Virus record (IMG/VR): IMGVR_UViG_3300013102_000007
Span: 1-64,000 of that record
DNA length: 64,000 bases
Origin: a virus
Direction: 5' to 3' (one strand)
Shown here: positions 4,867-58,266 of the stretch, one piece after another
Layout of the letters: each line of letters begins with the position of its first letter
Numbering within the stretch: the first letter of the stretch is position 1
Program-made: the position numbers and the translations under genes
Notes under the pieces: model-generated
Told to the model about the DNA's origin: nothing
What the model saw: only the letters and a program-made list of their open reading frames with translations
Databases searched by the model: none

Positions 4867-5094
4867 ATGGAAAATCAAACATTTAAATCAACAGAATTAA
4901 TTAAAGGCACTAGATATTTTTTAGATGGTCTTAAAGATGTTAGTGGTGTATTTAGTCACATTAAGGACGGTCGGGTTTATTTTACCGATTTCAAAGAAGA
5001 GAGGCCACAAATTATGCCATACTTAGAGAAAAACGGAGACGATACAGATTTCAATCAACAACTTTTTGATATTTGGGCAGTAGAAAAAGTTTAA
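4867..5094 (+). CDS. hypothetical protein (TRYxLD..KDVSGV family)
   Basis: 75-aa ORF, paralogous to 13954-14154 and 14157-14363. Its stop codon lies inside stem I of HH2. Confidence 0.65.
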   Translation: MENQTFKSTELIKGTRYFLDGLKDVSGVFSHIKDGRVYFTDFKEERPQIMPYLEKNGDDTDFNQQLFDIWAVEKV

Positions 5095-6311: not shown

Positions 6312-7508
6312 ATGAAAAATATTAAAATCTATGGTGATGCTATATCGGCTAACCTTTACCTAATCACAGACTTTTTAAAACGAAGCTCTATACAATTTAG
6401 TTGGGTTAGTTCTCTAACAAATACTAATGCTATTCGCTTTGAAGATGGAACTATCATATATAACCCTACAGTTAACGAAGTAGCAGATAAATTGGGATGG
6501 GTAGCAGAGCCAAAATGTACTGAATATGATGTATCTATTTTTGGCGGTGGTGTAGCTGGTTTAAGTGCAGCTGTTTACGCAGCATCTGAGGGTTTAAGAA
6601 CGGTAATAGTTGAACGTGAAACAATAGGGGGACAGGCCGGAACAAGTTCTTTAATCGAAAATTATTTAGGTTTTCCAAAAGGTATTTCGGGCGCTGAACT
6701 GGCTTTAAGGGCAAGGGAACAGGCTTTAAAATTTGGAGTTGAAATTCTATTACTAAAAGAAGGTATTAAAGGAGTTTCTAAAGATAATAATATTAACATT
6801 CAATTAGCTACAGGTGAAACAATAACCTCTAAAACTACAATCTGTGCTACAGGTGTAGAATACGCAAAATTGAACTTAGCAAACGAAAACAAGTACCTTA
6901 ATAAAGGTTTGTATTATGGTGCTGGTGCAAGTGAAGCTCCATTTTGTAAACACAAAGATGTTTATGTTGTTGGAGGTGGTAATTCAGCAGGTCAGGCCGC
7001 TGTCTACTTTTCTAAATTTGCTAAACGTGTCTACATGGTAATTCGAAAAGGAAATTTATCTGAAACTATGTCAGATTATTTAGTAAAACATATTTCAACT
7101 ATCACAAACATTTCAATACTATATAATTCAGAGGTTACAGACCTTAGCGGTAAAAAAGGTTTAGAAGCTATTAAAATATTTAATAGCAAAACTAATCAAA
7201 CCGACTTTTTTAAAACATCTAAATTATTTGTGTGTATAGGTGGAAAACCAAATACAGATTGGGCTAAAGATACTGCAATTTGCAGGGATCGTAACGGCTA
7301 TCTTTACACTGGAAACGATTTAATAGAATTAGACCAGTATAAGGAATGTTGGAAACATGACAGACAGCCTTTTCATTTAGAAACTAGTGTTGCAGGTGTG
7401 TTTGCCGCTGGTGATGTTAGATTTAATTCTGTAAAAAGAGTAGCTTCAGCAGTAGGCGAAGGGGCTATGGCAGTAACACAAATACATCAATATTTATCAA
7501 AATTGTAA
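6312..7508 (+). CDS. thioredoxin-reductase-like FAD/NAD(P)H oxidoreductase lacking the redox CxxC, with N-terminal extension
   Basis: FAD Rossmann GGGVAGLSAAVYAA, second dinucleotide site VVGGGNSAGQAA, C-terminal GVFAAGDV. The position of the TrxB CATC site reads YGAGASEA. Confidence 0.8.
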   Translation: MKNIKIYGDAISANLYLITDFLKRSSIQFSWVSSLTNTNAIRFEDGTIIYNPTVNEVADKLGWVAEPKCTEYDVSIFGGGVAGLSAAVYAASEGLRTVIVERETIGGQAGTSSLIENYLGFPKGISGAELALRAREQALKFGVEILLLKEGIKGVSKDNNINIQLATGETITSKTTICATGVEYAKLNLANENKYLNKGLYYGAGASEAPFCKHKDVYVVGGGNSAGQAAVYFSKFAKRVYMVIRKGNLSETMSDYLVKHISTITNISILYNSEVTDLSGKKGLEAIKIFNSKTNQTDFFKTSKLFVCIGGKPNTDWAKDTAICRDRNGYLYTGNDLIELDQYKECWKHDRQPFHLETSVAGVFAAGDVRFNSVKRVASAVGEGAMAVTQIHQYLSKL

Positions 7509-9197: not shown

Positions 9198-9342
9198 TCC
9201 AATTCAAAAACAGCGCACAAAAGAAAGTGTAGAAGTAAGAGGGGTATGCGCGGCCATTCAAGCAATGGCGTACCCCTCATTTGAAGACTTAAACAAACAG
9301 TTAAATATATTTGGTTATCACCTAGTTAAAAATGCAAAATAA
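9121..9342 (+). CDS. hypothetical protein (start uncertain)
   Basis: Track ORF overlapping the 3' end of 8889-9197. A GTG at 9187 would reduce the overlap to 11 nt. Confidence 0.4.
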   Translation: MLSQWQKPMPNELTKLITKGVIVETNPIQKQRTKESVEVRGVCAAIQAMAYPSFEDLNKQLNIFGYHLVKNAK

Positions 9343-9811
9343 GATGAAAAATTTCGGTTTAATTCCAGTTAAAAATTTTGGACAGGTTAGCGATTTGGTT
9401 TTCAGATCAGCACAACCTATTTACAATTATGAATATCAGTGGCTTAAAAATGTTGTAGGTATTGACTTAATTGTCAACCTACGTGCAGAGAAAGATAGGG
9501 ATGCAAAGTATGCTCCGGTGCATGGCATTGACAGTGTTACAATTCCTGTAAAGGATCATCAGGCACCAAGCTATGATAATGTAGAGGCTTTTAACCATGT
9601 TTTAATTAAAGCTATGGCAGAAAATAAAAAGGTACTCATACATTGTGAACATGGTCATGGTCGGACGTCTACATTTAGTGTTATAGCTAAAATTTTATCA
9701 GGTAGCACTTTTGATGAAGCTATTAATCAGGAAAAAGAAGAATTTAATTATACATTTAAATATCAGTCACAAATTGATTTTTTAAGTGATTACGCTAAAA
9801 CTATTAACTAA
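9332..9811 (+). CDS. dual-specificity / tyrosine protein phosphatase (Cys-X5-Arg)
   Basis: Signature HCEHGHGRTS (C-X5-R-T/S P-loop) with an upstream Asp candidate in VKDHQAP. Size is typical of DSP-fold phosphatases. Confidence 0.8.
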   Translation: MQNKMKNFGLIPVKNFGQVSDLVFRSAQPIYNYEYQWLKNVVGIDLIVNLRAEKDRDAKYAPVHGIDSVTIPVKDHQAPSYDNVEAFNHVLIKAMAENKKVLIHCEHGHGRTSTFSVIAKILSGSTFDEAINQEKEEFNYTFKYQSQIDFLSDYAKTIN

Positions 9812-13066: not shown

Positions 13067-13954
13067 ATGAAAAATAAAAATGAAATTTATGTAGAAATTA
13101 GTTCAAAAGCAGAGGCACAAGAATTAATAAAAATTTTAAAAGAAGCAAAAGAAGAAATTTTTAGTAGCTCAGATTTGAATGATGTTAATTTTAAAGATTG
13201 GCCTAGAATGGCATCCAAACATTATTCTGATGGAGAATGGGGTTTTTATGTAAATTTACGTGATAAAACAAAGGTAACTTTACACGAGTTAGCAGAAATT
13301 TTAGGTGTAATCAAAGAATTTAAAGTTGGAGATAAGGTTGAAATTGTTGATTTACCTGAAATAGGTAGTGAATTTGAAGGATTCTCTTTTACTTATTCTA
13401 CACATGTGGCTGATGACTTAAAAATTGGGGATATAGTAACAATAACTTCAATAGGTGATAATAAAAGTATCAGAGTTGATACTATAAGTGGTAACAATTG
13501 GGTATTATCTCCATCTAGTGTTAAATTAATTAATAAAATAGTTCAAGTTAATCCAACTGTTACTCGTGAAGCTTTAGCGGAAGTTTATCCTTTAGTTTGT
13601 TCAGAATGGCAAAGTTTAATATCTTTAGCCTTAAGTGAGAAAAAGAGTTTATTCTCTAACACAATTGAAGTAGTCCCTTTATTTTTAGAAAGAGCTTACA
13701 AAGAATGGCCTACCGGAGCACACTCTGAAGAGGTAAAAGCTTGGTTAGATAAGTATTTACCTAAGCCTAAAGTTGAGGTTGAGAAAACTATAACACTTTA
13801 CGGTGTAAGGAATACTAAAGAGGATACAACTTGGGCTACTACTTATAAAACTAGAGTTCTGGCTGAAGAAGCTATATATCGTAGACGTAGTACTCAATAC
13901 AAAGAATCATTAGAGATTGTTAAATTAACAGGAACTTATAAAACATTTGAATAA
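13067..13954 (+). CDS. hypothetical protein with MKKEEIYV-type N-terminal domain
   Basis: 295-aa ORF. The first ~80 aa (MKNKNEIYVEISSKAEAQELIKILKEAKEEIF...VTLHELAEILGV) are paralogous to the N-termini of 16546-17028, 20578-21156 and 63176-63427. Confidence 0.7.
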   Translation: MKNKNEIYVEISSKAEAQELIKILKEAKEEIFSSSDLNDVNFKDWPRMASKHYSDGEWGFYVNLRDKTKVTLHELAEILGVIKEFKVGDKVEIVDLPEIGSEFEGFSFTYSTHVADDLKIGDIVTITSIGDNKSIRVDTISGNNWVLSPSSVKLINKIVQVNPTVTREALAEVYPLVCSEWQSLISLALSEKKSLFSNTIEVVPLFLERAYKEWPTGAHSEEVKAWLDKYLPKPKVEVEKTITLYGVRNTKEDTTWATTYKTRVLAEEAIYRRRSTQYKESLEIVKLTGTYKTFE

Positions 13955-14154
13955 TGAATGTGAAAACAAAAGATTTAGTAGTCGGTACAAGGTACTGGTT
14001 AGATAAAATGAAAGATACTTCAGCCGTTTTTGTTAGGCATGATGTACACAACACTCAGGTGTTTAACAAACAAGAAGGTAAATGTGATTATCCTGAATGG
14101 GGTAAATGTATTTATTTTGAAAACAACAATCACGATTTTTATTCAATTGATTAG
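13954..14154 (+). CDS. hypothetical protein (TRYWLD..KD.S.V family)
   Basis: 66-aa ORF, tandem paralogue of the next gene and of 4867-5094. Confidence 0.6.
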   Translation: MNVKTKDLVVGTRYWLDKMKDTSAVFVRHDVHNTQVFNKQEGKCDYPEWGKCIYFENNNHDFYSID

Positions 14155-14156: not shown

Positions 14157-14363
14157 ATGAAGGTAGACGAGAATGATTTATTGATCGATACTAGGTATTG
14201 GTTAGACTACCAAAAAGATGTTAGTGGTGTCTACGATGGAAGAGACGACAGAGCTATATATTTTAAAGATATAGAAGGTAATAATCCTTATGCATTTGAT
14301 GAAGATGGTCGTGTACCATTTCCCATTTACTATGACAAACAACATAGTTTTTTAACACTTTAA
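14157..14363 (+). CDS. hypothetical protein (TRYWLD..KDVSGV family)
   Basis: 68-aa ORF, tandem paralogue. Confidence 0.6.
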   Translation: MKVDENDLLIDTRYWLDYQKDVSGVYDGRDDRAIYFKDIEGNNPYAFDEDGRVPFPIYYDKQHSFLTL

Positions 14364-15173: not shown

Positions 15174-15428
15174 TTATCTTTTTTCTATACCGTGAACTTC
15201 AAAACAGGCCACGCCTAATGTTACAACTTTTCTTAATTCATTTAAACCACCAGCTGCACCTTTTTGTGTAGATATGGCTTCAATGGCTTTATTCATATAG
15301 TGCTGCATATATGTTATGAATGCTTCAACTTCATGGTAGTTATCATGATCTTTACCACCCCACTTAGCATCTTGGTAATCTCTTTCTGAGTCTATAGCTT
15401 CATAGACCTCTTTCCTTGTATTTCTCAT
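15174..15428 (-). CDS. small all-alpha protein, weak MazG-like resemblance
   Basis: Internal ATG (M48 of track ORF 15174-15569) lies 2 nt after the stop of the upstream gene. ERDYQDAKWGGKDH motif resembles phage NTP-pyrophosphohydrolase-like proteins, but there is no clear EExGE. Confidence 0.5.
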   Translation of the reverse strand: MRNTRKEVYEAIDSERDYQDAKWGGKDHDNYHEVEAFITYMQHYMNKAIEAISTQKGAAGGLNELRKVVTLGVACFEVHGIEKR

Positions 15429-15429
15429 C

Positions 15430-15657
15430 TTATAACCCGTTAATTTTGTTATCAATCTCATACCAAATAGCACTAACACCAATACGATCTTCAGATGTAA
15501 CTTTTGGTTTATTAGTACCTTCAGGCAAACCTTTTTCAAATTGTGAAGAGTTTTTATTAAATGCTGCATATAGCATTTCTAAATCTCTATATGATTCAAC
15601 TACAATACTAATTGTAATTGGAATAAATTCCATATCTCTTTTTGATGTAACTTTCAT
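15430..15657 (-). CDS. hypothetical protein
   Basis: 75-aa ORF. Confidence 0.55.
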   Translation of the reverse strand: MKVTSKRDMEFIPITISIVVESYRDLEMLYAAFNKNSSQFEKGLPEGTNKPKVTSEDRIGVSAIWYEIDNKINGL

Positions 15658-15705: not shown

Positions 15706-16542
15706 TTATTTTTTCTCTCTCACAGCTTCATAAACAGCTTTAATTCTATCAATAGGTTCAGCTGCAACAAATTCACCAACTGATACATAACGTAATTTTT
15801 CAACCTTTAACAAGTGTGCTAAAACTTTAGCTGCTCCAACTTTGTTTAAATAGTTTAAAAGAATTTTACGTTTATCTTCTTCAGTTTGTTCCACCTTATT
15901 TTCTGGCGCTTGTGTAGCTGGCACAGTTGGTTCATCAAAAGATGCATTTGGAGTAATACCAGCTGCCGGAGTACCTGTTAATGCTTTAGAAGCCTCTACC
16001 GATTTAGGTGGATTAGCTATACCTTGAGCAGTTTTCTTTAAAACTTCAGATTGAGCTTTAGCAGGATCAATAGTTGTCGTTTTAGCGGCAGGTGGCGTTG
16101 GTTTAGGTGGTAATTGTTGTTTAGGTTTACCTGTTTGTAAGCCTTTAAACACATCAATACCAATTTCAAGGTAAGAGCAAATTTTAGTAAAGGCATCACT
16201 AGTAGCACCTTTATATGCATCACCTAAATCGAAATTTTTACTACTTTGACCAGAGTTGTCATTACCACCATAACTTTGTAATGTGATGTTGTAATCAGGA
16301 ATGGTTAAAGTTGATTGTACAACTATCATTCCATCGGCACCTACACTAAGCACTTCGCTAATTAAAGTCCATTTACCAATACCAAACACACTGTTTAAAC
16401 GTTCTGCAACGTAAATAGGTTTAATACTGCTTAAAAATGTTTTGGTAGGGTGTTGAGTAACAGCTTCATCTGGAAGTGGTGCAGATAATTCTGCTCTTAA
16501 TTGTTCTTGAGATTTTAATACTTTTTCTTCTTGATTTTCCAT
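15706..16542 (-). CDS. Rad52/Sak-like single-strand annealing protein
   Basis: ERLNSVFGIGKWT and DLGDAYKGATSDAFTKICSYLEIGIDVF match Rad52/22-family hallmark blocks. Pro/Ala-rich linker and C-terminal tail. Confidence 0.75.
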   Translation of the reverse strand: MENQEEKVLKSQEQLRAELSAPLPDEAVTQHPTKTFLSSIKPIYVAERLNSVFGIGKWTLISEVLSVGADGMIVVQSTLTIPDYNITLQSYGGNDNSGQSSKNFDLGDAYKGATSDAFTKICSYLEIGIDVFKGLQTGKPKQQLPPKPTPPAAKTTTIDPAKAQSEVLKKTAQGIANPPKSVEASKALTGTPAAGITPNASFDEPTVPATQAPENKVEQTEEDKRKILLNYLNKVGAAKVLAHLLKVEKLRYVSVGEFVAAEPIDRIKAVYEAVREKK

Positions 16543-16545: not shown

Positions 16546-17028
16546 TTATTCTTTTATTTTTGTGTAAGTAAATGTTGCTGTAGCTGGCCAAAAACCATTA
16601 ACTAGTTCTTCTTTAACGTCTATTACTAACTTTGGCATATATTCATCAGGATCAGCATCTTCAGGAAATCCTAAAAATAAAGTATTACCATCAGCAGTTG
16701 TTAAAGATTGCATAGCTTCGTTAAAGCTTTTATAGTCTTTAGTAAATGTAATAATAACATTTCCGTTTAAAATGTTTTCTAATTCTTTTAGAGAAATTTC
16801 AGTTTTTCCTTCTAAACAACTTTCTTCAAAAGTCCTAACCCATAATGACCAATCTGAATCCTCAAGTTCAATATCAAAATATAATTTATCACCACCACTT
16901 AATCTAGCATTAGATAAACTATCAGCTGACACACAGAATATGGGTTCTTTAGCTTCAGTTAAAATTTTATAAGCCTCTATACATTTTTCAGGTGTATCAA
17001 CCTGTACATAAATTTCTTCTTTTTTCAT
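16546..17028 (-). CDS. hypothetical protein with MKKEEIYV-type N-terminal domain
   Basis: MKKEEIYVQVDTPEKCIEAYKILTEAKEPIF...ISLKELENILNG, paralogous N-domain. Confidence 0.65.
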   Translation of the reverse strand: MKKEEIYVQVDTPEKCIEAYKILTEAKEPIFCVSADSLSNARLSGGDKLYFDIELEDSDWSLWVRTFEESCLEGKTEISLKELENILNGNVIITFTKDYKSFNEAMQSLTTADGNTLFLGFPEDADPDEYMPKLVIDVKEELVNGFWPATATFTYTKIKE

Positions 17029-17081: not shown

Positions 17082-18152
17082 TTATTTTATTTGAAAGTAA
17101 GCTTTTTTAAATTGAGTAGCTCTTCTATTAGTCATACTATTAGTTGTACCTTTAATACCTTCAAATGATCCACAAGATTCAAGTAATTTAACGCGACAAA
17201 GTGTTTTGTATTCCTCGATCTTGTTAGCTAATTTAATGCATTTTAAATACTGAGCCATATTAAAATCATCATTTTCATCAGCAACTTTAATATTTACATC
17301 TGAGTCAATTGGTTCAGCATAAATTTCCTGCATCAACTCTAAATTATCTTCAGTACCAACTGGTTCCGGTGTAACAGACTCAAGTATCGCATAAAACGCT
17401 TGTGCTGTTTCAATATCTCCTTCAGCTTCAGCCTCTTTCATACCTTTTAAAGCCATTTTACCAACCTTAACCTTCTCAGCAAATTCATTAACCTGTCTAA
17501 GAATCTCCTTTTGCATTTCAGGATCAGCATCAATTTCTTTTATTTTAAAATTAACACCATCAATCATTACAAGTAATAAAGCTTTGTCAACATTAGCAAT
17601 CAACATTTGATATTGAATTTGCTCCATATATTGACGAGCACAACCATTAGTCCATTTAATGTAATATTGCTTATTGGTATGCTTCAATTCGATAGGCATA
17701 TTTTTAGGATACAATTCACCTGTTATTGGAGAATAAGTTACACCTTTAGTGGTATAATCCAAAGATACAAACGAATTTGGATAAGCATCATTAACTAAAA
17801 AATAGTTAGCTTTAGATGCTTTCCTAACACTTACACCATTCAAACTATTATTTAAAGATTCTTGCTCATCATTGTGTACATAAGCTTCATATCTTTTAAT
17901 CGTAGTAGGCTCATTTAAGTGTCCGGCCAAGGTAGTTTCTGTTATAAAGAAACTATGATGATAATTTATCAAATGATAAAAAAGTCTCTGTTTTGACTTC
18001 CAAGGATTACTACCAGTAATAACTGAAACATCACTAGCACCAATTCTGACAATTTCATCATCATTAATGCCCTCCATTTCTGATCGCATGGCAGCCCAAG
18101 CATTCATATCTGCTCCTTTGCCCCACACTATTTTTCTTGGTTTATTTTTCAT
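17082..18152 (-). CDS. YqaJ/lambda-exonuclease-like recombination exonuclease
   Basis: IGASDVSVITGSNPWKSKQRLFYHL matches the YqaJ N-terminal signature. Partner of the adjacent annealase. Confidence 0.7.
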   Translation of the reverse strand: MKNKPRKIVWGKGADMNAWAAMRSEMEGINDDEIVRIGASDVSVITGSNPWKSKQRLFYHLINYHHSFFITETTLAGHLNEPTTIKRYEAYVHNDEQESLNNSLNGVSVRKASKANYFLVNDAYPNSFVSLDYTTKGVTYSPITGELYPKNMPIELKHTNKQYYIKWTNGCARQYMEQIQYQMLIANVDKALLLVMIDGVNFKIKEIDADPEMQKEILRQVNEFAEKVKVGKMALKGMKEAEAEGDIETAQAFYAILESVTPEPVGTEDNLELMQEIYAEPIDSDVNIKVADENDDFNMAQYLKCIKLANKIEEYKTLCRVKLLESCGSFEGIKGTTNSMTNRRATQFKKAYFQIK

Positions 18153-18642
18153 GTTTAAAATTTAAGTTTGCAAATTCTTTAAAATGTTTTTTAGCAAATT
18201 TATCATACGCTTTAGCTGCTTCATGTTCTGTACTGTAATAACCTATATGCATAACTTTACCTTCTATAGTTATTCTAGCTCTCCACGGTTTAGTTACTTT
18301 GCCACTGGCAAAAACTACCCCTTTGTAAGTTGAAGTTGATTTGCTTATTCTAGCTTTAATTTTGTTCCTTGAGTTTTGCATATGATTACAAATTCGAATA
18401 TTACTTCTTCTGTTATCTAATCCATTTGCATTTTCATGATCCACAATAAGATTTTTGTCATAAATATCTAATATAAATCTGCTTAAACGAATATTTTTTC
18501 CTTTAATTTTAGAAGTTGCATACCAACTCCTATTCTTATCAGGCTTAATGGCACACCACTTATGTTGTGATACTTTGTCATAATCTTTTTTATCAATCAA
18601 AGCAACCTTACCCTGAGTTAATTTTATTTCAACTGTTTCCAT
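18142..18642 (-). CDS. HNH homing endonuclease with AP2 DNA-binding domain
   Basis: VDHENANGLDNRRSNIRICNHMQNSRN (HNH_3-type) plus YKGV..WRARI..G....IGYYSTEHEAAKAYD (AP2). Overlaps both neighbours. Confidence 0.85.
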   Translation of the reverse strand: METVEIKLTQGKVALIDKKDYDKVSQHKWCAIKPDKNRSWYATSKIKGKNIRLSRFILDIYDKNLIVDHENANGLDNRRSNIRICNHMQNSRNKIKARISKSTSTYKGVVFASGKVTKPWRARITIEGKVMHIGYYSTEHEAAKAYDKFAKKHFKEFANLNFKHEK

Positions 18643-19685
18643 TATACGAATATATTTGTACTATCATCATCCCAATTGTAATTAGGCTGAATAGCACTTG
18701 ACGTGCTAGTATTTTGAGCTTCGTATTCTCCACAATAATACTTTATACCTCCTATAATTTCATAGAACTTCTGAGCAGGTACGTCATAGTACAATCTAAA
18801 GGCTCCTGTGTCTCCGGCACCAAATACTTTATTTTTTTGAACTAAAAAATCTGTAGCATTGGCTGGATAGGGGGTGCCAACTGATCTTTCCATAACACCT
18901 TCAGGACAGCGCCACAATCCAAACATAGTTTGAGCAGTCCTCCAAACATTCATACCATTAGCAATCTTAGACGGATGTGGTTTACCCATATACTCAACAC
19001 CTGTATCTTTGTCAGTAATTAAATCTTCTCCTTGCAAGTGCATACATATCTGAATATGCATATTCATAGAATCAGCTACATGATTTATATAATAAAGGTT
19101 TTCTAAAATATAATCAGCAATTTGCTTTTTTCTTTCTTCATCATCTTTGGCCACCATGTTGTGAGGGTCAATCAATAAAATATCAATTGGTTCACCATAC
19201 TCTTTGGCTGCTCTAAATATTTGTGAAAACATTTCTTCAGTAGTAAATCTAATTTTATCTTTACCAACAACTTTAGGCGCTAAAAGAATAAAATGTTTAT
19301 CAATAAAAGCTAATGCTTCCATCCACTCTTCATCTGTAGCTTCTTGTTTAAATGCACCATGAAGCTTTTTACCAAGATATACCTGAACTAAATAAGATAC
19401 TAAATAATTTCTACCTCCGGCTTCTGGTGAGTAAATAGCAAACACAGCACCATATTTACGGGCTATATACATATAAATGTCAAATACAAAAGATGTTTTA
19501 CCCATAAAAGGGTGGCTGTAGAGAAAACTTGTGAATCCTTTTTTAAGTGAAAGATACGGTTTAGCTGACTCAAATCCTATATCATAACCACCTTCGAAAA
19601 CTATATTTCTACTTTCAAGTACTTCATTCTGAAATTCGGACACTCTGTAGTATGATTTAGGTGTAAGTTCTTTCTTTTTTTCCAT
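18642..19685 (-). CDS. DnaB-like (RecA-fold) replicative helicase ATPase
   Basis: Walker A SHPFMGKTSF resembles DnaB RPxMGKT. Walker B ILLIDPHN. 347 aa, corresponding to the C-terminal helicase domain only. Confidence 0.6.
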   Translation of the reverse strand: MEKKKELTPKSYYRVSEFQNEVLESRNIVFEGGYDIGFESAKPYLSLKKGFTSFLYSHPFMGKTSFVFDIYMYIARKYGAVFAIYSPEAGGRNYLVSYLVQVYLGKKLHGAFKQEATDEEWMEALAFIDKHFILLAPKVVGKDKIRFTTEEMFSQIFRAAKEYGEPIDILLIDPHNMVAKDDEERKKQIADYILENLYYINHVADSMNMHIQICMHLQGEDLITDKDTGVEYMGKPHPSKIANGMNVWRTAQTMFGLWRCPEGVMERSVGTPYPANATDFLVQKNKVFGAGDTGAFRLYYDVPAQKFYEIIGGIKYYCGEYEAQNTSTSSAIQPNYNWDDDSTNIFV

Positions 19686-20577: not shown

Positions 20578-21156
20578 TTATTTTGTTTTTAATTTATTGT
20601 AAAAATGATCAATTGCTACACCATCACGTTGTTGATTTTGCATTACAAGCTGAAGACCAAAAATAATGGCCGAAGCGTGATCTTCAGACTTGTCCCCAGC
20701 TTCTAATGATGCTAAGTGACGATGAATACTTTCAAAGCTTGACTTGTCAGGTTGACCCAATTCAAAGTTACCTTCACCATATTTTTCAGCACCAAGCAAC
20801 ATGTGATAACCAAAACGTTGTCGTGTATATGGTAATAAATCAGCTACACGAGGTTTACCTACATTACTATCTCTTACAGAGCCTGTTTCGAAAGAACGTT
20901 GAGTTGATTTTGTTATTTTTTCACTAACACCAAGTATCTCAGCCAACTCTTCAATTGAAACTTCTTTTAATGATAATCTAGGCTTATAACTCCAATCTTT
21001 ACTATAGGCTACAGAGAATCCAGATGAACCATAAGGTTCACCTCTAAATATACAGCTACTAGGCCATATTGATTCACCAGATTGTTTTAAGATAGATACA
21101 ACTCTTTCACAATCTTCTTTAGTTTTAGGGGCTACATAAATTTCTTCTTTTTTCAT
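20578..21156 (-). CDS. MKKEEIYV-domain fused to dATP/dGTP-diphosphohydrolase-like domain
   Basis: N-terminal MKKEEIYVAPKTKEDCERVVSILKQSGESIW...IEELAEILGV. C-terminal GKPRVADLLPY...GAEKYGEGNFELG...SIHRHL...EDHASAIIFGLQL resembles the phage dNTP diphosphohydrolase N-domain family. Confidence 0.65.
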   Translation of the reverse strand: MKKEEIYVAPKTKEDCERVVSILKQSGESIWPSSCIFRGEPYGSSGFSVAYSKDWSYKPRLSLKEVSIEELAEILGVSEKITKSTQRSFETGSVRDSNVGKPRVADLLPYTRQRFGYHMLLGAEKYGEGNFELGQPDKSSFESIHRHLASLEAGDKSEDHASAIIFGLQLVMQNQQRDGVAIDHFYNKLKTK

Positions 21157-30486: not shown

Positions 30487-33400
30487 CTATTTATTTTGAT
30501 AATCTACTCTTGTTTTTCTCTCATTTGCTTTAGCTTTTAAAGCTTCTACAGCGGTTTCTTTCAAAGCTTCACCTTCTTCACCCATAGATTGTAGTGTCAA
30601 TTGTTCGGCCATTTTATCAGCAACATTTCTAATAACCTTCTCGTATTCTTCTTTAGTAAGTCTATTTTTATATTTTTCAAAAGGGTACTTACTTTTTATT
30701 TCATTTAAAGATTTATCTCTTTGTTGAAAATAAGTAACTTGTTGTTCAGGATTCAAATCATAGTCTTGTTTCAAAGTTGTTATTTTATCTACAATACCTG
30801 CATCCCTAATAGCTTTATCTAAATCTTTTGTTTTTTCACCACCTCTATCTTGTTTAACAAGTTCTTTTGTAATTCTGGTAGCAATACGTCTCATATTACC
30901 AACTTCTTGAGTAGTTGCACCAAACATACTAACACTTGCTGAAAGAGCAGAAGCATAGTTTATAAATCTATCATATTTAGGTACACCGTACTGCGCTTTT
31001 CCCTCTTCAGTTAATCTTTGCTCATCAACTACAATATCGTTGAGTTCCGCGTTTAAAACGCCATAACGTTTAAGAATAAAATCCTTATCGGTCTGAGTAG
31101 CTGCTGAAAAAGCTTTAAAAGCATCAACACCTCTTATTATAGGCAATCCAGCTGATCCTAGCGGTAAAAGACCTACTTTTAAGGCATTTGGTGTCATAGT
31201 TCTACCTAGCTCTGCATCCTTAGCTTCTTTATCAGTGTAAATAGCTTCTGTAGTCAAATCAATAACAGGGTTAAAAATTAATTCTAAGCTTGCACCACCT
31301 ATACCACCGTATAAAAAGTCTCTTAAAAGATTTTGAGTTCCAGAAACTTCTGCTTTGGTTAAAGCCACATCTGTTTCTTTTGTAACAGTCTGATTTAATT
31401 TTTTCTTTTTATTTTCATCATCTACCATAGAAGAAATAACACCTTGAATGGCGGCACCGGAACCTACTATACTTGCATATTTTAATCCTTGGGATACTTT
31501 ATTGAAAGCGTATATACCAGCTAAATTACCCATCATATTTCTAAGAGCATGACCTTTCGAAACACCATCTTGAGAACTTAAAGCTCTGTTAGTATTTGAT
31601 ATAAGTTCCATTTTACTATTGATAGCAAATGAAGAGAATAAAAGATAAGTTTTAACTAAACTATTTTTACTGAATTTACTTTTCATTGTAGCATCAGACT
31701 CATTCAATGTAACAGAAGTCATATGATTAGCGTAGTCCATAGCTTTTCTATCTACGTTTGTAGGACTTAAGTCTACACCAGCTTCGTTATTTTTCTTTTG
31801 ATAATCTATATAAAAACTTAACCAACCTATTTTAGCAGTTAATTTATCTACGCTTGCTAAAGGTTTTAAAGATAATTCTGTACCTCTGTCAATAGTTTTT
31901 TCAACACCCTCGCCTAAACTTCTTAGTAATGTTCTACTATTTGTACCATCAAACTGTCTTTGTTTTATATTACCTTGAGGCAACTCACTATATATAGCAT
32001 CCCTCCATTTAACATTAGATTGATCTATAAGTGCAACTGCATCTTTAGTATTCCCAGCTAAGTGTGATAAAGCTTGAACAAAGGCAGTATTAGTTTTCAA
32101 GCCAATATTTACAACCTCAACAAATTGTTTAGGGGCTGCAAATAAACCACCTAATGTTTGAGCTATACCTAACTTAGCAGCGGTTCTCCAAGTTCTTTTT
32201 AAAGTTTCAGGATTACTTTTGCCGTACTGCATAGCAGCAACAGTTTCAAAAACTTTTTGTTCAGCTAAAGCACTGTAAGTTTCAAACAGTCCAGTATCTG
32301 AAAATTTTTCAACAACAGGTGAAGATTTAAGGTCTAAAGCATTTTTAATATAAACTCTATCTGATCCTGTAAAAGCATCATAAGACATAATAGATAAATT
32401 CGGTAAAAAATTATCCATAAAATTACCATTCAAAACAGATTCACTAGGTAATTGATTACCTTTTAACTGTCTTGTTTTACCTGATCCTGATTTAGCAGTG
32501 TTTATACTAGAAAATGATTGACTGCCATAAGGATCAATACCTGCTGCTTGTCCTGATAATGCCTCTAATTGATTGGTGTTACCACCTAAAAAATCATATT
32601 TCCTAGTGGTATAATTTTGCCAATCAGCTTCAATATCAATATTACTATTAACACGAGCATTAAAAAAGAAATCATCTTTTATACTATCATGACTTTCTCT
32701 AGAAAGTTTATAAAATTCTTTGTGGCCTTGATCGAATAAACCAAATAAATCGCGAGAACTTATTTTAGGTTCAACACTTACAACAACACCTTTATCATTT
32801 CTTTCAACATTACCTATAATAGGTTCTAGAGCTTTTTCTAAATTTTTAATATAGTTTTCATTTTCAGCTTTAAAACTTGAATTCTGTTCAGCTCTTAATT
32901 TTAAACGCTCCAAAGTATTTTGCCAAGCGGCTAATCTATTGCCATATTCGGCAGTTATTTGTTCTGGTGTCCAAGAATTTCTGTATTGAACAACATCCGC
33001 ATAAATACCTAATTGAATATTTTTTACAACATTTTTAAAATCTTTAGAATATTTTTTATTTAAACTAACTAATTTTTGTCTTACTCCATCTACAAATTTA
33101 TAATGTTTATTATTAGTATTAAATACTAAATCAGAAAGACCTGTTACATTTTCAATTTCAGGTATTTTCATCTGATTTTTAAGTCTTAAATCTTTACGTT
33201 GACTACCAGAACCAAATTCATCAAATTGTTTTTGTAACCAAACTTTAGGTACAAGAATTGCTTTTTGAATAGTGCCTATTAAATTTTCATCTAAAGATTT
33301 TTTATAAACTTCATTTTTAGCAACTATATCACCTAATCCAGTCACGCTACCATAATTAACTAAATTAGTCAATCCGGCTACTAAGCTAGGTAAATTTGAG

Positions 33401-36400
33401 TCTTTAACTCCGTCAATGTCTATATTTTTAACTTTGTCATTAATAAAATCAATTTCTCTTTTAGTAAAATCCACATTGCCATTTTCATCAATAACAGTCA
33501 AATCAATATCTTCAACCATATCTTTTAAAACCTTGGCTGTTTCTCTATAGGCATCAACCAATTTAGGTTTAGCATCTTCTAAGGTTTTTGTTAATTTTTC
33601 TAAAAGCGCATCAGGATCGCCTGAGTAGAGATTATCTATTACAGAAGTATCTACACCCATTTCATCTAATCTCTCTTTTACAGCCTCTATTCTTGCTTCT
33701 TTATACTCTTTGGTTAATTTTTCAGCATCAGAAAGTATTTTTTGTGCATTTTTATATGCATCACTTACTTTAGCCAAATCACTACCATTTCTAAGTTCAA
33801 GTGTTGGACTTTCTAAAAGTTTAGCTATTTCTGAAGTAGATTTAACTAAATCATCTATGTTGTTTATATATTTTGGATTAATCGAAATAATTTCCCTTAA
33901 TTTAGTTTTTAAATCAGCCGGAATATTTTTATTTAAAAGAGATTTAATTTTTCTTTTATTTTTACTAACCTCATCTAATTTATCTAAATATCTAGCATCA
34001 CCTACTACTTTAAGTAGTTTTTTACCAAAATTTTGTAATGTAGCTAAAGTATTGGCTTTAGATAACTCAGTTACTAATCTTTGGTGAGTACTATTGCTAA
34101 TTTTATCTTTACCGTTAGATGTTAAAAGATTATTAAGTATTTTACCCAATTCTTTGTTTGCTGTTTTAACACTTTCTCTTGTATCTTTAACACCTTTTTT
34201 TATACCTTCTCCAATACCACTAGACAATGTTTTTAAATGTTGCACTAAAGCATCACGATTAGATATTGTGGTTGTACCTGTTATTTTACCCTCTGTTTTT
34301 GCTTTAACAACTTCTTTAATAGGAGCTTGTGTTGAAGTTTTTTGGGCTTCTACACTGGCTTCAACTCCCCCTTTTACAGCTCTATTAAATGCTTCTTCTG
34401 TAAATTTGTTTTTAACTCCTATAAAATCTTGAAAATCTTTAACGGTTTTAATAGTACCACCATCATAAACTTTTTTAGCATAATCTACTAAAGGTTTAAT
34501 ATCAGTTTCAGCATTAGCTTTTTTAGCTAAATCTTGCATGTTAACTAAAATTTCTCCCTGTCTTTCTTTAGCACGTACGAAATCTGGATTAGTCGCTTCA
34601 TATTCTTTAGCAGAATCTACAGCTTTATAATAAATATCATCTATTTCTTTAGAATGTTTTAAACCTAAAGCTGTAGATAAAGCTTTGGCAGATTTAATTG
34701 TACCATCAGCTATACTTAAAACAGCATATTCTAATAAAGCTTTTACACTCTCAGGGTTGAAGCCTGATGTAGCAGTTCTTCTGGATTCTTTTATACCAGC
34801 TAACAATCTTTGTTTAACAACTTCTTTGTAGTCAGTAATACCTTGTTCTCCACCTTTAAAAGCTTCTAAAATATTTTTAGGCGCAACAACTGGTGCCCCT
34901 GATTGTTCAGCAACTATTTTGTTTAATTCATATTGATCTTGTTGTATGTTTGCTTCAGCTTCTTGTTTTTGAACTTCTAACTCAGATTTAGCAACAGGAT
35001 CATTAGAAATTTTAGCAGTTTGTTCAGTTTGCTCTATAACTTGTTCTGATTCTTTAATACGATCAGCAATTTCTGTTTTTTGTACTTCCGTAGGGTTATA
35101 TAAGCGATAAACTTGTTCAACCTTTGCTTCTAGTTGAGATTTAACTTCATTAGGTAAATCAGAACTACGTATGCCCTCAATAAATTTACTAGGGTCTTTT
35201 GATATATTGGCAGTTAATTCTTTAATATCAGCTGCATTTTGCAATGCAACTTGACTTAAGTGTTGTTGATTTTTAGTAGCCTCATCTTTTGCATCAATAG
35301 CTTTAACACCAAGCTCTACAGATTCAGCTCGTAAGTCATCTGCTGATTTGTTTAATTTGAAAATAGCATCAATCTGATCGGGAGTAGCTTTGATAAAGTT
35401 TGCAATTTTATTTTGTTTATTTCTTTCTGCTATATCTTTTGAGACCTTAGCATCTAATGCAATTTTATTACCAATTGCTTTACCAACAGCCGGAGCCTCG
35501 AAAGCAAACCCTGTACCAAATTGTACAGCAGCATCCCTCCAATTTATAGGTTGGCCATTTAACAAATTATCACCAACTGAAGTAGCCCCAAAAGTTGATC
35601 CTACACCAATAGCTTGAAATAATTTTTGAGTTACTTCTCCACCTTTTAAATAACCTTTTTCAAATAATTTTTGAGTTACGCCTTTACCAAGCATCATTTG
35701 AGCTTCTATTGTGTAACCTTCTACAGCACCTTTAAGTCCTTCTTTACCAGCAGCAACCAAAGATTCGCCTGTTGTAGCTCCTTCATTTCTTGAAGTACCA
35801 TAACCTGACAATGCTTTAGAAGCAGTTAAGAATTTAACTAAACTTGAAAAATATTGAGGTGTCGCTGCTGCTATACTTTCTCCACCAGTGGCTGTTGTAG
35901 CCATAATTAAAGGAACAGCTGATACAACACCATGACCTACATCTAATAATCCTCTACCTAAATCTGAAGATACTGTACCATCACCCAATGAATTTGCGCG
36001 TACTGTTAATGATCTTTCTCCATCACGTCTAGCATTTTCTGCAAGATTATCAAACAAACCACCTTTTTGAGAAGTATATTTTTTACCAGTTACACCAGTA
36101 TAAATATCTCCTATTACATCATCAACAAAAGTTGTAGCACCAGCTAAAGGCTCATAAATAAATTTACCAAAACCTTCTGACAAAGTTGATATACCAGCAG
36201 CATCAGCAAATTTAGTTAAACTATCACGACCTGCATCACCCTCTGAAATTTGTGCTTCATTAGCTAAATGTTCATTGAGAGTTGGTAACTTCACATTAGG
36301 ATTGGCAGCTTGATAAGTTGCTAAGGCATTTTGTAATTGATTTTCTGATAAACTATATTTATTTGGATTACTGAAAACAGGTAACTTAACATCAGGATTC

Positions 36401-36825
36401 GCAGAACTGTAAACACTAGATGCGTTTTGTAATTGTTCTTGAGATAATTGAAATTTTTCAGGTTTTTTCGCAGTAATCTGCACTTCATCTAACTGAGTAG
36501 CCGGAATGGTTTGTTCAATAAAATCAGGTGTAGGAAATCCAAAAGGATTATTATTAACACCTTGTTCAGGAAGTTTACCTTCAGGATATTGACTTAAGTC
36601 TACTTTTGGCTCTTCAGTTTTAGTAAATTCAGGAAATTTAGCATTTACCTCAGAAAGGTTTTTATACTTACCACTATTCGCTGTAGCTACGTAATCACGT
36701 AAAAGTTCCTTATCATAAGAATGAAGTTCAGGAAACTTACCATAAACTTCATCCAAATTTTTATACTTACCACTATTCGCTGTAGCTACGTAATCTCTTA
36801 ATAATTGTTCTAATTTTTCGTCCAT
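30487..36825 (-). CDS. giant virion protein (tape-measure / internal ejection protein-like), 2112 aa
   Basis: Uninterrupted 6.3-kb ORF with long coiled-coil stretches and Gly/Ala-rich hydrophobic segments. N-terminal 17-aa motif LLRDYVATANSGKYKNL is duplicated. Confidence 0.8.
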   Translation of the reverse strand: MDEKLEQLLRDYVATANSGKYKNLDEVYGKFPELHSYDKELLRDYVATANSGKYKNLSEVNAKFPEFTKTEEPKVDLSQYPEGKLPEQGVNNNPFGFPTPDFIEQTIPATQLDEVQITAKKPEKFQLSQEQLQNASSVYSSANPDVKLPVFSNPNKYSLSENQLQNALATYQAANPNVKLPTLNEHLANEAQISEGDAGRDSLTKFADAAGISTLSEGFGKFIYEPLAGATTFVDDVIGDIYTGVTGKKYTSQKGGLFDNLAENARRDGERSLTVRANSLGDGTVSSDLGRGLLDVGHGVVSAVPLIMATTATGGESIAAATPQYFSSLVKFLTASKALSGYGTSRNEGATTGESLVAAGKEGLKGAVEGYTIEAQMMLGKGVTQKLFEKGYLKGGEVTQKLFQAIGVGSTFGATSVGDNLLNGQPINWRDAAVQFGTGFAFEAPAVGKAIGNKIALDAKVSKDIAERNKQNKIANFIKATPDQIDAIFKLNKSADDLRAESVELGVKAIDAKDEATKNQQHLSQVALQNAADIKELTANISKDPSKFIEGIRSSDLPNEVKSQLEAKVEQVYRLYNPTEVQKTEIADRIKESEQVIEQTEQTAKISNDPVAKSELEVQKQEAEANIQQDQYELNKIVAEQSGAPVVAPKNILEAFKGGEQGITDYKEVVKQRLLAGIKESRRTATSGFNPESVKALLEYAVLSIADGTIKSAKALSTALGLKHSKEIDDIYYKAVDSAKEYEATNPDFVRAKERQGEILVNMQDLAKKANAETDIKPLVDYAKKVYDGGTIKTVKDFQDFIGVKNKFTEEAFNRAVKGGVEASVEAQKTSTQAPIKEVVKAKTEGKITGTTTISNRDALVQHLKTLSSGIGEGIKKGVKDTRESVKTANKELGKILNNLLTSNGKDKISNSTHQRLVTELSKANTLATLQNFGKKLLKVVGDARYLDKLDEVSKNKRKIKSLLNKNIPADLKTKLREIISINPKYINNIDDLVKSTSEIAKLLESPTLELRNGSDLAKVSDAYKNAQKILSDAEKLTKEYKEARIEAVKERLDEMGVDTSVIDNLYSGDPDALLEKLTKTLEDAKPKLVDAYRETAKVLKDMVEDIDLTVIDENGNVDFTKREIDFINDKVKNIDIDGVKDSNLPSLVAGLTNLVNYGSVTGLGDIVAKNEVYKKSLDENLIGTIQKAILVPKVWLQKQFDEFGSGSQRKDLRLKNQMKIPEIENVTGLSDLVFNTNNKHYKFVDGVRQKLVSLNKKYSKDFKNVVKNIQLGIYADVVQYRNSWTPEQITAEYGNRLAAWQNTLERLKLRAEQNSSFKAENENYIKNLEKALEPIIGNVERNDKGVVVSVEPKISSRDLFGLFDQGHKEFYKLSRESHDSIKDDFFFNARVNSNIDIEADWQNYTTRKYDFLGGNTNQLEALSGQAAGIDPYGSQSFSSINTAKSGSGKTRQLKGNQLPSESVLNGNFMDNFLPNLSIMSYDAFTGSDRVYIKNALDLKSSPVVEKFSDTGLFETYSALAEQKVFETVAAMQYGKSNPETLKRTWRTAAKLGIAQTLGGLFAAPKQFVEVVNIGLKTNTAFVQALSHLAGNTKDAVALIDQSNVKWRDAIYSELPQGNIKQRQFDGTNSRTLLRSLGEGVEKTIDRGTELSLKPLASVDKLTAKIGWLSFYIDYQKKNNEAGVDLSPTNVDRKAMDYANHMTSVTLNESDATMKSKFSKNSLVKTYLLFSSFAINSKMELISNTNRALSSQDGVSKGHALRNMMGNLAGIYAFNKVSQGLKYASIVGSGAAIQGVISSMVDDENKKKKLNQTVTKETDVALTKAEVSGTQNLLRDFLYGGIGGASLELIFNPVIDLTTEAIYTDKEAKDAELGRTMTPNALKVGLLPLGSAGLPIIRGVDAFKAFSAATQTDKDFILKRYGVLNAELNDIVVDEQRLTEEGKAQYGVPKYDRFINYASALSASVSMFGATTQEVGNMRRIATRITKELVKQDRGGEKTKDLDKAIRDAGIVDKITTLKQDYDLNPEQQVTYFQQRDKSLNEIKSKYPFEKYKNRLTKEEYEKVIRNVADKMAEQLTLQSMGEEGEALKETAVEALKAKANERKTRVDYQNK
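36659..36696 (-). repeat. 38-nt perfect direct repeat, copy 1 (in-frame)
   Basis: TTTTTATACTTACCACTATTCGCTGTAGCTACGTAATC is identical to 36758-36795, offset 99 nt. Confidence 0.85.
36758..36795 (-). repeat. 38-nt perfect direct repeat, copy 2 (in-frame)
   Basis: Identical to 36659-36696. Encodes the duplicated DYVATANSGKYKN segment. Confidence 0.85.
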
Positions 36826-39896: not shown

Positions 39897-42800
39897 TTAA
39901 AGACCATCATCAGGACAACCTAAAGTATAATTCCAAGCTGTTCCAGACATAGGTGCGTAAACTCTAACTATTGCTACAGTAGGGTTAGCAGTTGTTTTTG
40001 TGAAAGACATAGTACCTGCCCCTACACCTACTATGGTTTCTGACGGTAATCCTCTAGCTGCCAATGCGGCATCCAGTGCAGCTTGGTTAGACGAGTTACC
40101 TCTATATCCTGTATCAATAACTACATCACCATCGTACTCTACAACAAATTTATCAGGTATGTCAAGAGCATCAAAAGTTAATGTTACAGTACCAAGACCA
40201 CTACCTAAAGTTATCATTGTTTCGTTAGGGAAAGATTCTCCACCACTAAAAGCGTTGTCTACACCACATGCTATAATAGGTATGTCTTCTTCTTTTGTTT
40301 CTATATTCCAAGTAGCTGATTTATCACCCATAGTAAGTGTTAAACTAACTGTTTCATCGTTATCAGGACTAGATAATCTTCTAGTTTTTACTAAAGCATT
40401 CGGAGGAACCATTCCTGCAATCGATGTAAAAGCACCACCATTTATGTTGTACTCTCCACCAACTATACTGATAGGAACTGAAATATTTATACCATTAGAA
40501 TAAACAGTATTACTTTCTAATAATGTATTAACTTCTTGGTCAAATAAATCAATAAAAGAGAATACATCTACAGTAGTATCACCTAAAAGTACAGTACCAC
40601 AAGCATTTTTAAATTTCACAACTCCATCTATTGTAAAAGTGACTCCCATAGAATCAGAACCTACATAATCTGTTGTTGGTGTGTACAATAAATCGCTTCC
40701 TAATACGGATAAAACACCATGTGAAGGTTGAACTAAAGTAACATCATCCACATCTATGTCGTAATTATCTTTGTACTCCCAAGCACCGTCACTAGTAAAA
40801 CTAAAAACTACAGGGTGTCCAGATACATCTGTGAAAGTTACATTCCACTCTTTATTAAAATTATCAAAATAACTTACTATTTCAGTTGGTTTAGCAGTTT
40901 TAAGTTTGTCAACAAAGAATTTTTCGTTTTTAACAGTAATAGCTTTCACACCATCATAACCATCCCTACAAGGATAGCCGTTATTTGGATCAATAAAATA
41001 AACTGTTCCATTAGTAGAAACTGCTATAGCTCTTTTTGCTAGTCCGGCACCAAGTTTACTCCCTATATAATTTGCATTATTAAAAAGTTTATTACTAATT
41101 GCTACATTAGCCTGTTCATTTTGATCTTCTAAAATGGATGTATAAACTGGTATATGAGCCACATCTAATTCTTGTAATACAATTAAGTATCTACTTCTCA
41201 TAACCATTTTAGCAATGGCACCATATAAAGAAGTAGTTTCTCCACCAACATCCCCATATATTCTATTTGCATAAAATCTGTTTATGTTGTTGTTAAGGCT
41301 ACCAATACTAAATGTATCTGAAAATCTTAAAGATGCTTTTCTTCTTACTTTACCTACTTCATCATTGTAAGTCCTACCGCGACCTTTACTCCAAAATGCA
41401 CTAGCATATTCATCAGAGAAATTAAAATCCTCTACATTAAACGCAAAAACATCATTTGAATTAGCAACATTAGACAAGAATTTCCTTGGTCTGATGTAAG
41501 AATCAACTTGTTTTATTACTCCTTGAGTAACACTATGTTGTCCATTTACAATATCGTATTGTTCTCCTATTTCATAAAATATTTTAGTATCTATATTTTC
41601 GTTATTTTTCTTAGGAGTATATAACTCTAGTAAAAGCTCTTTACCATTCAAATCACCTGATATGTTCATTAGACTTGACTTTTTGATCTTTAGCAAATAC
41701 TTGGTTATAGCAATAGATGATACAGTTACTACTTTTATTTCAAAACCCGAAATAGCAAAATCCAAAGGTGGTTCATTAAACCATTTTATAGGAGTTGATG
41801 ATCCACTAAAATTATGTATAAAAGCAACCCTATCCCCTTCTGCAAAGTCGTAAGAAACAACCCCACTTTCTGAGTTTTTATTAAATCTATCTAGCGAAGC
41901 TATATTTATAGCTATAAAATCATCTTTACTTTCATCAGCATCATAGATACCAGTTAAATAAAGATTTTTTGCATATTTAGTATTTTCTGATATAAGCCAT
42001 TGATAGCTAACTGCACCTACAGGTGGTTGATGATTAATCTTCCAACCGATTTGAGGAACCAAACCTTCAGTAATGGCGTAATTAGGTGTAGGTGCTACAT
42101 ATTCAGCACCAGTAGCTATAGGCGCAAGTTTACCTTTTGGATAAATATATTCTAAAGCCAATTGATAACTTGTACCAGTTTTAATTACATTAATTGATCG
42201 ACCTTCAACATCGCCACTTCTATTTAATAAAAGAATAGTTGATTTTAACTCATCACCGCTAACTGTTACAAAAAACAATGTTACATGATCTGATGAATGT
42301 ACTTCTCTACGTTTTGTTATACTAAAAAACTGTTCATCGGGTAATCTGTTAAATAAATTAAGGGTAAAAGATTCTAAGTTATTGTCATCAGCTGCTACAG
42401 CAGTATAGTCTATTACAGATGTAGTATCACTAGAATCTAGTGCACCAATATTTATTACTATTCTGTCCCCTGCTTTTGGTGTACCAAAAAAATCTAAAGC
42501 TACATATCTTCTATGTGTCCCACTAATTCTTGATTGTGAAGTATCAACTCTAAAATTTCTTACATCATTTAATACAATTCCGGTGTCCACTTGATATGAC
42601 GTTACTGAAATGTCAACGTCAGTAACTGGCCTATCGTAACCTTCCTCTAAATCACCTAGAACAACTATATCACCATTTACAACTTCTAAAGCACCTGCAT
42701 TATCAGGAATCGCATCATAAGGTTCGTCAGTGTCTAAATCTGATATAGGATCACCAGCACTATTGTTATAAAATATAAATGAATATAAATTGGTAGAAGG

Positions 42801-57097: not shown

Positions 57098-57122
57098 TGT
57101 TTTTAAATTTTAATTTTTATTG

Positions 57123-57193
57123 TTTGCTCTGCGAGACTCGAACTCGCATCTACTGCGGAGAAGCAGCTTTCTACCAAATTGAACTAAGAGCAA
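57123..57193 (-). tRNA. tRNA-like gene, anticodon uncertain (UCC if the 7-nt loop UCUCCGC is used)
   Basis: Acceptor TTGCTCT/AGAGCAA and T arm GCGAG-TTCGAGT-CTCGC are perfect. The anticodon arm folds either as a 7-nt loop with C33 and a 2-nt variable region, or as a 6-nt loop. Confidence 0.5.
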
Positions 57194-57423: not shown

Positions 57424-57491
57424 ATGTGCAGGTATATTATTGACGTAACATACCTACTTGAAAGTTTATTAGATTCATCCGAACCGATAAA

Positions 57492-58262: not shown

Positions 58263-58266
58263 TATT

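Follow-up and report, generated by a model that had tools for sequence, protein, structure and literature searches.

A phage protein module with a conserved frame and a variable internal cassette, found at the N-termini of otherwise unrelated proteins

Four proteins encoded in a 64,000-nt stretch of viral DNA (positions 1 to 64,000 of the IMG/VR record IMGVR_UViG_3300013102_000007, called the window below) begin with versions of the same module of about 80 residues, and related modules head many proteins of other phages. Our data show that the module is real, autonomous, N-terminal, promiscuous, rare and phage-restricted, and that it occurs only in uncultured phages of low GC content. It consists of a conserved frame enclosing a hypervariable cassette that appears to be exchanged by recombination. 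We propose, tentatively, that the module may serve in protein recognition.

The four proteins, named A to D, are all open reading frames (ORFs; Table 1), and they align over their ~80-90 N-terminal residues with 16 invariant columns. A window search with a hidden Markov model (HMM) trained on all of A to D would be circular, so we used leave-one-out profiles, in which the HMM from three copies was compared with the 799 six-frame ORFs of the window that have at least 30 residues. The left-out copy was recovered each time, with E-values of 1.9e-10 for A, 2.7e-17 for B, 1.2e-9 for C and 1.7e-15 for D, and no fifth copy scored among the 799 ORFs with these HMMs. Searches with single sequences using phmmer link 10 of the 12 ordered pairs with E-values from 3e-13 to 3e-3, and only A/D is missed. 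A preliminary description of this DNA had claimed that the four N-termini are homologous and had named a profile HMM as the check; with E-values between 1e-9 and 1e-17 every copy stands above the noise and the claim holds. The N-terminal motif given in that description does align in all four proteins, but A starts with MKNKNEIYV, which has one extra residue, and A does not have the motif Cys. At the DNA level the copies are ~65% identical per column in a genome of 33% GC. B and C begin with an identical 24-nt stretch as a result of codon bias, and there is no other identical stretch among the copies. A recent duplication or a shared promoter can be ruled out by this level of DNA identity and by the lack of any consistent upstream motif, and A to D are old paralogues.

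Table 1. Module-bearing proteins of the window, their parts, and the enzyme gene that overlaps protein D
Feature	Position (nt)	Strand	Description
Protein A	13067-13954	+	295 aa, ORF; module = aa 1-80
Layout of A			module aa 1-80; SH3/Tudor/KOW-like beta-barrel ~88-155; helical domain ~164-230; beta/alpha C-terminal unit ~237-294 (predicted)
Cassette of A	13157-13264	+	~aa 31-66, type 1; 12-15% identical to B, C, D; frame 28-47%
Protein B	16546-17028	-	160 aa, ORF; module = aa 1 to ~88, then 70-aa tail
Cassette of B	16807-16941	-	~aa 30-74, type 3, common to D and P0003
Protein C	20578-21156	-	192 aa, ORF; module = aa 1 to ~78, then linker and enzyme domain
Cassette of C	20968-21069	-	~aa 30-63, type 2; 9-12% identical to A, B, D
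Enzyme domain of C	20626-20877	-	aa 94-177; putative dATP/dGTP diphosphohydrolase-type all-alpha NTP (nucleoside triphosphate) pyrophosphohydrolase
Protein D	63176-63427	+	83 aa, ORF; module only
Cassette of D	63263-63367	+	aa 30-64, type 3
MazG/PRA-PH-like NTP pyrophosphohydrolase gene	63420-63899	+	PF01503, E = 1.8e-8, 35.1 bits against a cut-off of 21.3; phrog_671, E = 7.6e-27

We predicted the 3D structure of D using AlphaFold2 (AF2) with an alignment of 61 sequences. The model is of the alpha/beta type and has a pLDDT (predicted local distance difference test) of 94.5 and a pTM (predicted template modelling score) of 0.84, with the topology b1-a1-(b)-a2-b-b-b-a3 and the strands (b) and helices (a) at residues b6-9, a13-25, a32-39, b47-51, b54-58, b67-69 and a71-81. 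The N-terminus of A in its full-length AF2 model shows b7-11, a14-26, a short helix at 36-38, b49-54, b57-60, b68-70 and a72-78. The two copies modelled agree in the order of their secondary-structure elements, which answers the comparison of folds suggested in the preliminary description, and the module is predicted to be an autonomously folding domain of ~80 residues. A Foldseek search of the D model against the PDB gave no fold neighbour (best E = 5.9, TM 0.28). In BFVD the same model finds only unnamed, uncharacterized small early proteins of cultured phages, at TM scores of 0.55-0.79 and in most cases weakly (E > 0.01). These include five proteins of the A0A345B series (A0A345BQ40, A0A345BPL4 and A0A345BQ39 among them; best E = 6.5e-6 at 32% identity), four of Acinetobacter phage Aristophanes, two of Pseudomonas phage phiK7A1, and others of Acinetobacter phage Petty and of Leuconostoc phages. 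Since several of these neighbours come from single genomes, the D-like predicted fold is multi-copy elsewhere too.

Conservation over ~155 copies of the module is restricted to residues 1-29 and 65-80. The conserved hydrophobic core positions are V8, L23, L74 and L78, plus W55; S/T12, and S/T70 with E/Q73, are conserved helix N-caps; and K3, E28, K/R66 and T67 are the conserved charged or polar positions. No catalytic signature and no Gly-rich or pocket-like motif was found in these ~155 copies. The net charge is not conserved and ranges from -11 to +6 across the family, with 59% of the modules having an isoelectric point (pI) below 6 and 30% above 8; the window copies are acidic (pI 4.3-5.4). 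A helix-turn-helix (HTH) was considered and rejected: the matches to HTH_11, HHH_2 and the WhiA HTH score 12.6-13.5 bits, where the cut-offs are 25-27, and cover 16-34 residues, and D ends 2 residues past the 'SLEELAEILG' helix, so that the alpha/beta fold has no recognition helix.

The frame of the module comprises strand 1 and helix 1 (residues 1-29) and the last strand and helix 3 (residues 65-80). The cassette between them, residues ~30-64, contains helix 2 and a beta-hairpin and is hypervariable except for W55 and the hydrophobic positions 37, 48 and 50. Residues 30-70 of D have a pLDDT of 88-97, so the cassette would be structured rather than a floppy loop. We found 749 pairs of modules with a frame identity of at least 85%, and their mean cassette identity is 25%, with 74% of the pairs lower than 25%. 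Four syntenic phages have module genes whose DNA is 87-100% identical over nt 1-85, only 20-55% identical with changes in length over nt ~90-170, and again 87-98% identical over nt ~190-260, and the DNA outside the module gene is mostly unalignable in these phages. A second subfamily has 78-87% DNA identity in the 5' arm, 18-51% in the cassette and 67-90% in the 3' arm. These patterns indicate that the cassette is replaced wholesale via recombination between conserved arms and not by drift. We rejected a diversity-generating retroelement (DGR) as the source of the cassettes, as they differ in length and their DNA is unalignable at 20-55% identity; no reverse-transcriptase Pfam family is listed in the context tables of the module loci. 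The tail is mosaic too in one subfamily (L032, L121, L122 and L123; nt 260-450), where P0208 reaches 31-38% identity with the other three genes over nt 374-450, compared with 90-97% among those three, indicating that sub-genic recombination may extend beyond the cassette.

Three cassette types coexist in the phage represented by the window: one in A, one in C, and one common to B and D. The frames of the window copies are 28-53% identical. Their cassettes are 9-15% identical, but this value rises to 35% for B and D and for either of them with P0003, the orthologue of B in another phage. B and D are close to each other, in that the nearest family member of D is B and the nearest of B is P0003, while A and C are distant (rank 14-238 of 262).

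An exhaustive HMMER search of 1.84 billion representative sequences returned 207 clusters at E <= 1e-3, of which 29 have E <= 1e-10, all consisting of unnamed metagenomic proteins. A word-indexed search with A to D gave two outside relatives only, and an indexed search with a profile of 61 members gave 115 proteins, nearly all of them metagenomic and 'hypothetical' and three of them with implausible automated names; a precomputed Pfam domain is found in none of the 115. None of the 61 members matches Pfam, one chance match aside, or PHROGs v4, and the best match of the module to PDB sequences has E = 0.09. Using tblastn with the module of B, D, P0010 and P0022, no module was found in cultured phages, where only the SH3-like segment of A matched. 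Two pattern scans of 185,579 species-representative cellular genomes gave no true copy; a candidate, L075, is a chance N-terminal match of an otherwise unrelated protein. DNA-pattern scans of IMG/VR gave 26 loci, of which 14 score with the module HMM, with one copy each.

Of 152 family proteins, 146 have a module that starts no later than residue 12. It stands alone in 17 of these 152 and is present in tandem in three (P0053, P0013 and P0033). Clustering by BLAST sorts the attached tails into 23 groups, of which 15 have a single member. Recognizable tails are rare, namely dGTP_diPhyd_N (C, P0029 and P0045), DUF3850/ASCH (P0016), and one case each of DUF6378 and DUF3310; the other types include SH3-like barrels, coiled coils and many orphans, and a barrel-like 'KVGD' motif starts many tails straight after the module. 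The preliminary description had spoken of a portable domain on unrelated proteins, and its portability extends from the unrelated tails in the window to those in more than 200 clusters from other uncultured phages. Most loci of 10-20 kb have one module copy. However, three loci have a gene pair overlapping by 4 nt, with a standalone module of 80-83 aa followed by a 136-aa protein of module plus tail (L032 9753-10411, L033 3708-4366 and L034 1421-2070), so the window is not the only case of a phage with paralogous module genes. The module genes in nine independent contexts lie within runs of small unannotated ORFs, near genes for ERF/RecT, DNA methyltransferases, helicases and primases, which places them in what appears to be the early or accessory region.

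The reading we favour, with a confidence slightly short of even, is that the module may be a non-catalytic protein-recognition domain in which the cassette would set what is bound and the tail would be the cargo. That it would not be an enzyme follows from the absence of a catalytic constellation and from the conserved positions, for which folding is a sufficient explanation. The frame would provide the fold, and possibly also a common face for docking or self-association; the cassette would determine the binding target for cargo such as NTP pyrophosphohydrolases, SH3-like barrels, an ASCH/PUA-like domain, coiled coils and orphan domains. The near-identical frame DNA would act as homology arms, through which cassettes and tails could be exchanged between phages by recombination. 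With three cassette types, the four copies in the window would probably have up to three targets rather than one. An extended version, which we regard as speculative and rather unlikely, is a recombination-diversified binding scaffold: the phages would shuffle the variable region to retarget effectors or a bare binder onto fast-evolving host proteins, e.g. defence components.

Several points weigh against a recognition domain. D has no characterized structural neighbour in the Foldseek searches, and hence nothing known backs a binding role. The models were made from overlapping alignments, and the surface position of residues follows from helical periodicity only. The databases used are clustered at 50% or 90% identity, which hides pairs that are similar throughout and so exaggerates the contrast between frame and cassette, and a cassette that merely tolerates replacement, i.e. 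neutral mosaicism, would look identical. In addition, A to D share five residues at columns that vary in the family (S34, L62, K65, E72 and I76), which fits a common constraint better than independent specificities. Neighbour-matched quartets, drawn from the 15 nearest outside relatives of each copy, share 0.79 such residues on average (P ~5e-4, or ~0.02 with stricter columns), and replacing any one window copy by an outside relative cuts the count. This test is post hoc and covers five positions, and we take it as modest evidence; the shared residues are compatible with a genome-specific shared constraint.

The five shared residues, against 0.79 expected, would suit the adaptor suggested in the preliminary description, in which a conserved face of the module docks A to D onto one common partner. 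That description listed the single-stranded DNA-binding protein SSB, the helicase and the ribonucleotide reductase (RNR) as candidates, and the annealing protein or another phage or host hub could be added. The presence of four copies with different tails in one genome, the family-wide conservation of the frame, and the location of B in an exonuclease/annealing-protein operon in two phages also argue for it. However, apart from the post hoc nature of that five-position test, the conserved positions are mostly related to folding (core and N-caps), the outward sides of helices 1 and 3 are variable and the net charge of the module runs from -11 to +6 across the family, which is odd for a conserved docking face, the cassettes are wholly different between A, C and B/D, and other phages have a single copy at most loci. 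We hence consider an adaptor unlikely. Self-association is a serious rival although we rate it as distinctly improbable: the modules would homo- or hetero-oligomerise, so that standalone and fused paralogues form mixed complexes or multimerise their tails. It is consistent with the tandem modules, with the overlapping standalone and fused genes, with the four copies of the window and their genome-specific shared residues, and with the BFVD neighbours that come several from one phage genome. All-alpha NTP pyrophosphohydrolases (the MazG superfamily) act as oligomers, which counts for it as well. But one copy per 10-20 kb is the rule at most loci, and a hypervariable structured cassette is unnecessary for oligomerisation.

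The remaining explanations, i.e. conservation at the DNA level, ligand sensing and nucleic-acid binding, are each less likely than an adaptor or self-association. If the frame arms were recombination linkers, the protein domain would be little more than a tolerated N-terminal leader; the arms are indeed islands of 87-100% identity amid unalignable DNA, B and C start with the same 24 nt, and the tails are extremely diverse with many orphans. We nevertheless find this highly improbable: the frame is kept as protein down to 25-40% identity where the DNA has diverged (~65% in the window), it supports the confident model of D, and it occurs without any tail in the standalone proteins, all of which argues for selection on the protein. 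We give the least credit to the idea that the module senses a small molecule such as a nucleotide, regulates the attached enzyme, or tethers it to DNA or RNA. The fusion or coupling to NTP pyrophosphohydrolases in C, P0029, P0045 and D-MazG, the conserved polar residues K3, E28, K/R66 and T67, and the weak sub-threshold HTH/HHH matches on the last module helix of C would fit it, but the majority of tails are non-enzymatic, a Gly-rich or pocket-like motif is missing, the charge is not conserved with the window copies being acidic, and the HTH matches reach 13 bits against 25-27 on one helix, right after which D ends.

Phage accessory proteins are well known to undergo domain shuffling, and in 2002 Iyer, Koonin and Aravind reportedly described N-terminal modules with promiscuous partners (Bro-N, KilA-N and similar) in accessory proteins of phages and viruses. 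The Bro-N and KilA-N families are DNA-binding, and we know of no internal swapped cassette in them. Our module resembles them in its N-terminal position, its ~80-100 residues, its many unrelated C-terminal partners, its several copies per genome and its shuffling. It differs in having no sequence relation to them (0/61 match Pfam), in its unconserved charge with acidic window copies, and in its internal swapped cassette. Polymorphic proteins offer another comparison. The internal proteins of phage T4 share a capsid-targeting sequence, a signal cleaved by the prohead protease, and the contact-dependent inhibition (CDI) and Rhs toxins have a constant N-terminus and a variable C-terminal effector. 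The likeness lies in the constant N-terminal part with diverse C-termini, the recombination at the conserved part and the hyperplastic loci. In contrast to these systems, the constant part would here be a folded 80-residue domain, neither a short peptide for targeting nor a large apparatus for delivery, with the variable element also inside this N-terminal domain; the genes map to early, replication or recombination regions and not to virion modules, and nothing in the sequence data points to packaging, cleavage or toxicity. It is in none of the curated families tested (Pfam-A and PHROGs v4), where PF18909 and PF01503 describe the cargo domains only, and an exchangeable internal cassette is unusual. 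A curated domain entry is merited and would annotate several hundred proteins that are now "hypothetical".

The pattern of frame and cassette suggests that an early, non-structural protein is under selection to diversify. If specificity does reside in the cassette, the family would be a natural library of small binders and a handle on the early targets of Flavobacteriaceae phages, and it would explain the N-terminal extensions that enzymes such as NTP pyrophosphohydrolases have in some phages. Should the retargeting scaffold be true, it would represent a modular targeting system in early phage proteins, with a logic comparable to that of polymorphic toxin/immunity systems.

The tail of C was described earlier as dATP/dGTP-diphosphohydrolase-like, and we agree. 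It matches the Pfam family dGTP_diPhyd_N (PF18909) with E = 1.4e-9 and 38.2 bits against a cut-off of 27, and in PHROGs it matches phrog_801, 'dATP/dGTP pyrophosphohydrolase', with E = 3.1e-7 as well as phrog_18716. We assign it to the dATP/dGTP diphosphohydrolase type with a predicted activity; a PDB sequence search gave no solved homologue. The same fusion of module and dGTP_diPhyd_N is seen in P0029 and P0045. D had been described as the module alone, and this is accurate for the 83-aa protein, but its stop overlaps the start of the MazG/PRA-PH-like gene: the ATG of the latter falls within the last codons of D (CAA TAT GAA TAA), giving an 8-nt overlap (ATGAATAA). As such an overlap is typical of translational coupling, the two genes are probably translationally coupled. 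A by-eye idea that the tail of P0039 is MazG-like was dropped, with a BLASTP E-value of 0.28, no Pfam match and no PDB match.

The cultured relative elemoA (NC_055852) has no module in its whole genome by HMM scan. Its gp01 pyrophosphohydrolase is 43% identical to the MazG-like ORF of the window, and its gp02 shares 50% identity with the ORF of 533 aa immediately upstream of C. In elemoA (gp01/gp02, L020 1-1964) a PRA-PH/MazG enzyme follows the 'DNA transfer protein' gene; in the window this slot is taken by C, and the elemoA-type MazG is found 42 kb from the C slot, behind D. We read this as a non-orthologous swap between two pyrophosphohydrolase families. The module itself is an accessory addition and not part of the fused or coupled enzymes, because elemoA has a MazG homologue without the module and the B orthologue has no B tail.

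B is encoded between the single-strand annealing protein gene (15706-16542) and the YqaJ exonuclease gene (17082-18152). The locus L003 is syntenic with this region, with an exonuclease, a small ORF, the module and an annealing protein, and its orthologue of B, P0003, occupies this slot as a bare module of 86 aa with 54% identity over the module. We looked for homologues of the 70-aa tail of B and found none anywhere. An anti-defence island beside the module in L003 was considered and rejected, since the precomputed Acb2/Tad1 match (PF24729) has only 18.1 bits against a cut-off of 27 (E = 0.0032); this neighbour has no counterpart in the window. The ORF at 18142-18642 (-) is like an endonuclease with HNH and AP2 domains, both matches being below the Pfam cut-offs. 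It overlaps the genes of the DnaB-like helicase (18642-19685) and the YqaJ exonuclease and looks like a homing-endonuclease insertion. Another small ORF at 15174-15569 (-) has 'ERDYQDAKWG' in its C-terminal 84 aa, by eye like phage NTP-pyrophosphohydrolase-like proteins, with no Pfam match at E <= 0.01.

The full-length AF2 model of A (pLDDT 79.8, pTM 0.40) shows four confident domains whose mutual orientation is not fixed. The middle domain (~aa 88-155) matches only SH3-like barrels in the PDB by Foldseek (E = 7e-3 to 8e-2, probability 0.96-1.0, 73-120 columns), such as ribosomal eS4, the SETDB1 Tudor domain, PetP and YorP of B. subtilis SPbeta. This likeness of SH3/Tudor/KOW barrels concerns the middle domain, is below strict significance and carries no functional annotation. 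The Pfam SH3_15 match of this domain has E = 0.0095 and 16.6 bits, under the cut-off of 24, and the other domains of A have no structural neighbours in the PDB by Foldseek. The architecture of A recurs in 19 representative clusters of the family. Directly downstream of A are two tandem members (13954-14154 and 14157-14363, both +) of a paralogue family of 66-75 aa, whose third member is at 4867-5094 (+). They share the motif '..L..GTRY(W/F)LD..KD(V/T)SGV(F/Y)' and have no Pfam match.

The window is phage DNA, as judged from its gene content: a tRNA array, a class II RNR, the YqaJ exonuclease, the annealing protein, the DnaB-like helicase and large structural ORFs. No GenBank phage matches it at the nucleotide level. 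Its terminase is 28% identical to the terminases of Flavobacterium "elemo", Cellulophaga and Tenacibaculum podophages, and because of these relatives the host is probably a marine or freshwater member of the Flavobacteriaceae. The array of 17 tRNA genes covers 57122-59736 on both strands and includes one tRNA with an unassigned 2-base anticodon call; a lone tRNA called as Asn (anticodon ATT) lies far from it, at 2912-2987. The RNR gene (60586-62523, +) is of the B12-dependent class II type, and a thioredoxin-reductase-like flavoprotein with an N-terminal extension of ~70 aa is encoded at 6312-7508 (+). Along with two or three NTP pyrophosphohydrolases, they suggest a heavy investment of the phage in nucleotide metabolism. 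A dual-specificity/PTP-type phosphatase at 9332-9811 (+), which among Pfam families best matches PF22785, a phosphatase of the 'polymorphic toxin system' (E = 6.8e-14), is an unusual early cargo for a phage. Two very large ORFs, 30487-36825 (-) with 2112 aa and 39897-43688 (-) with 1263 aa, probably correspond to the giant virion proteins of elemo-like phages.

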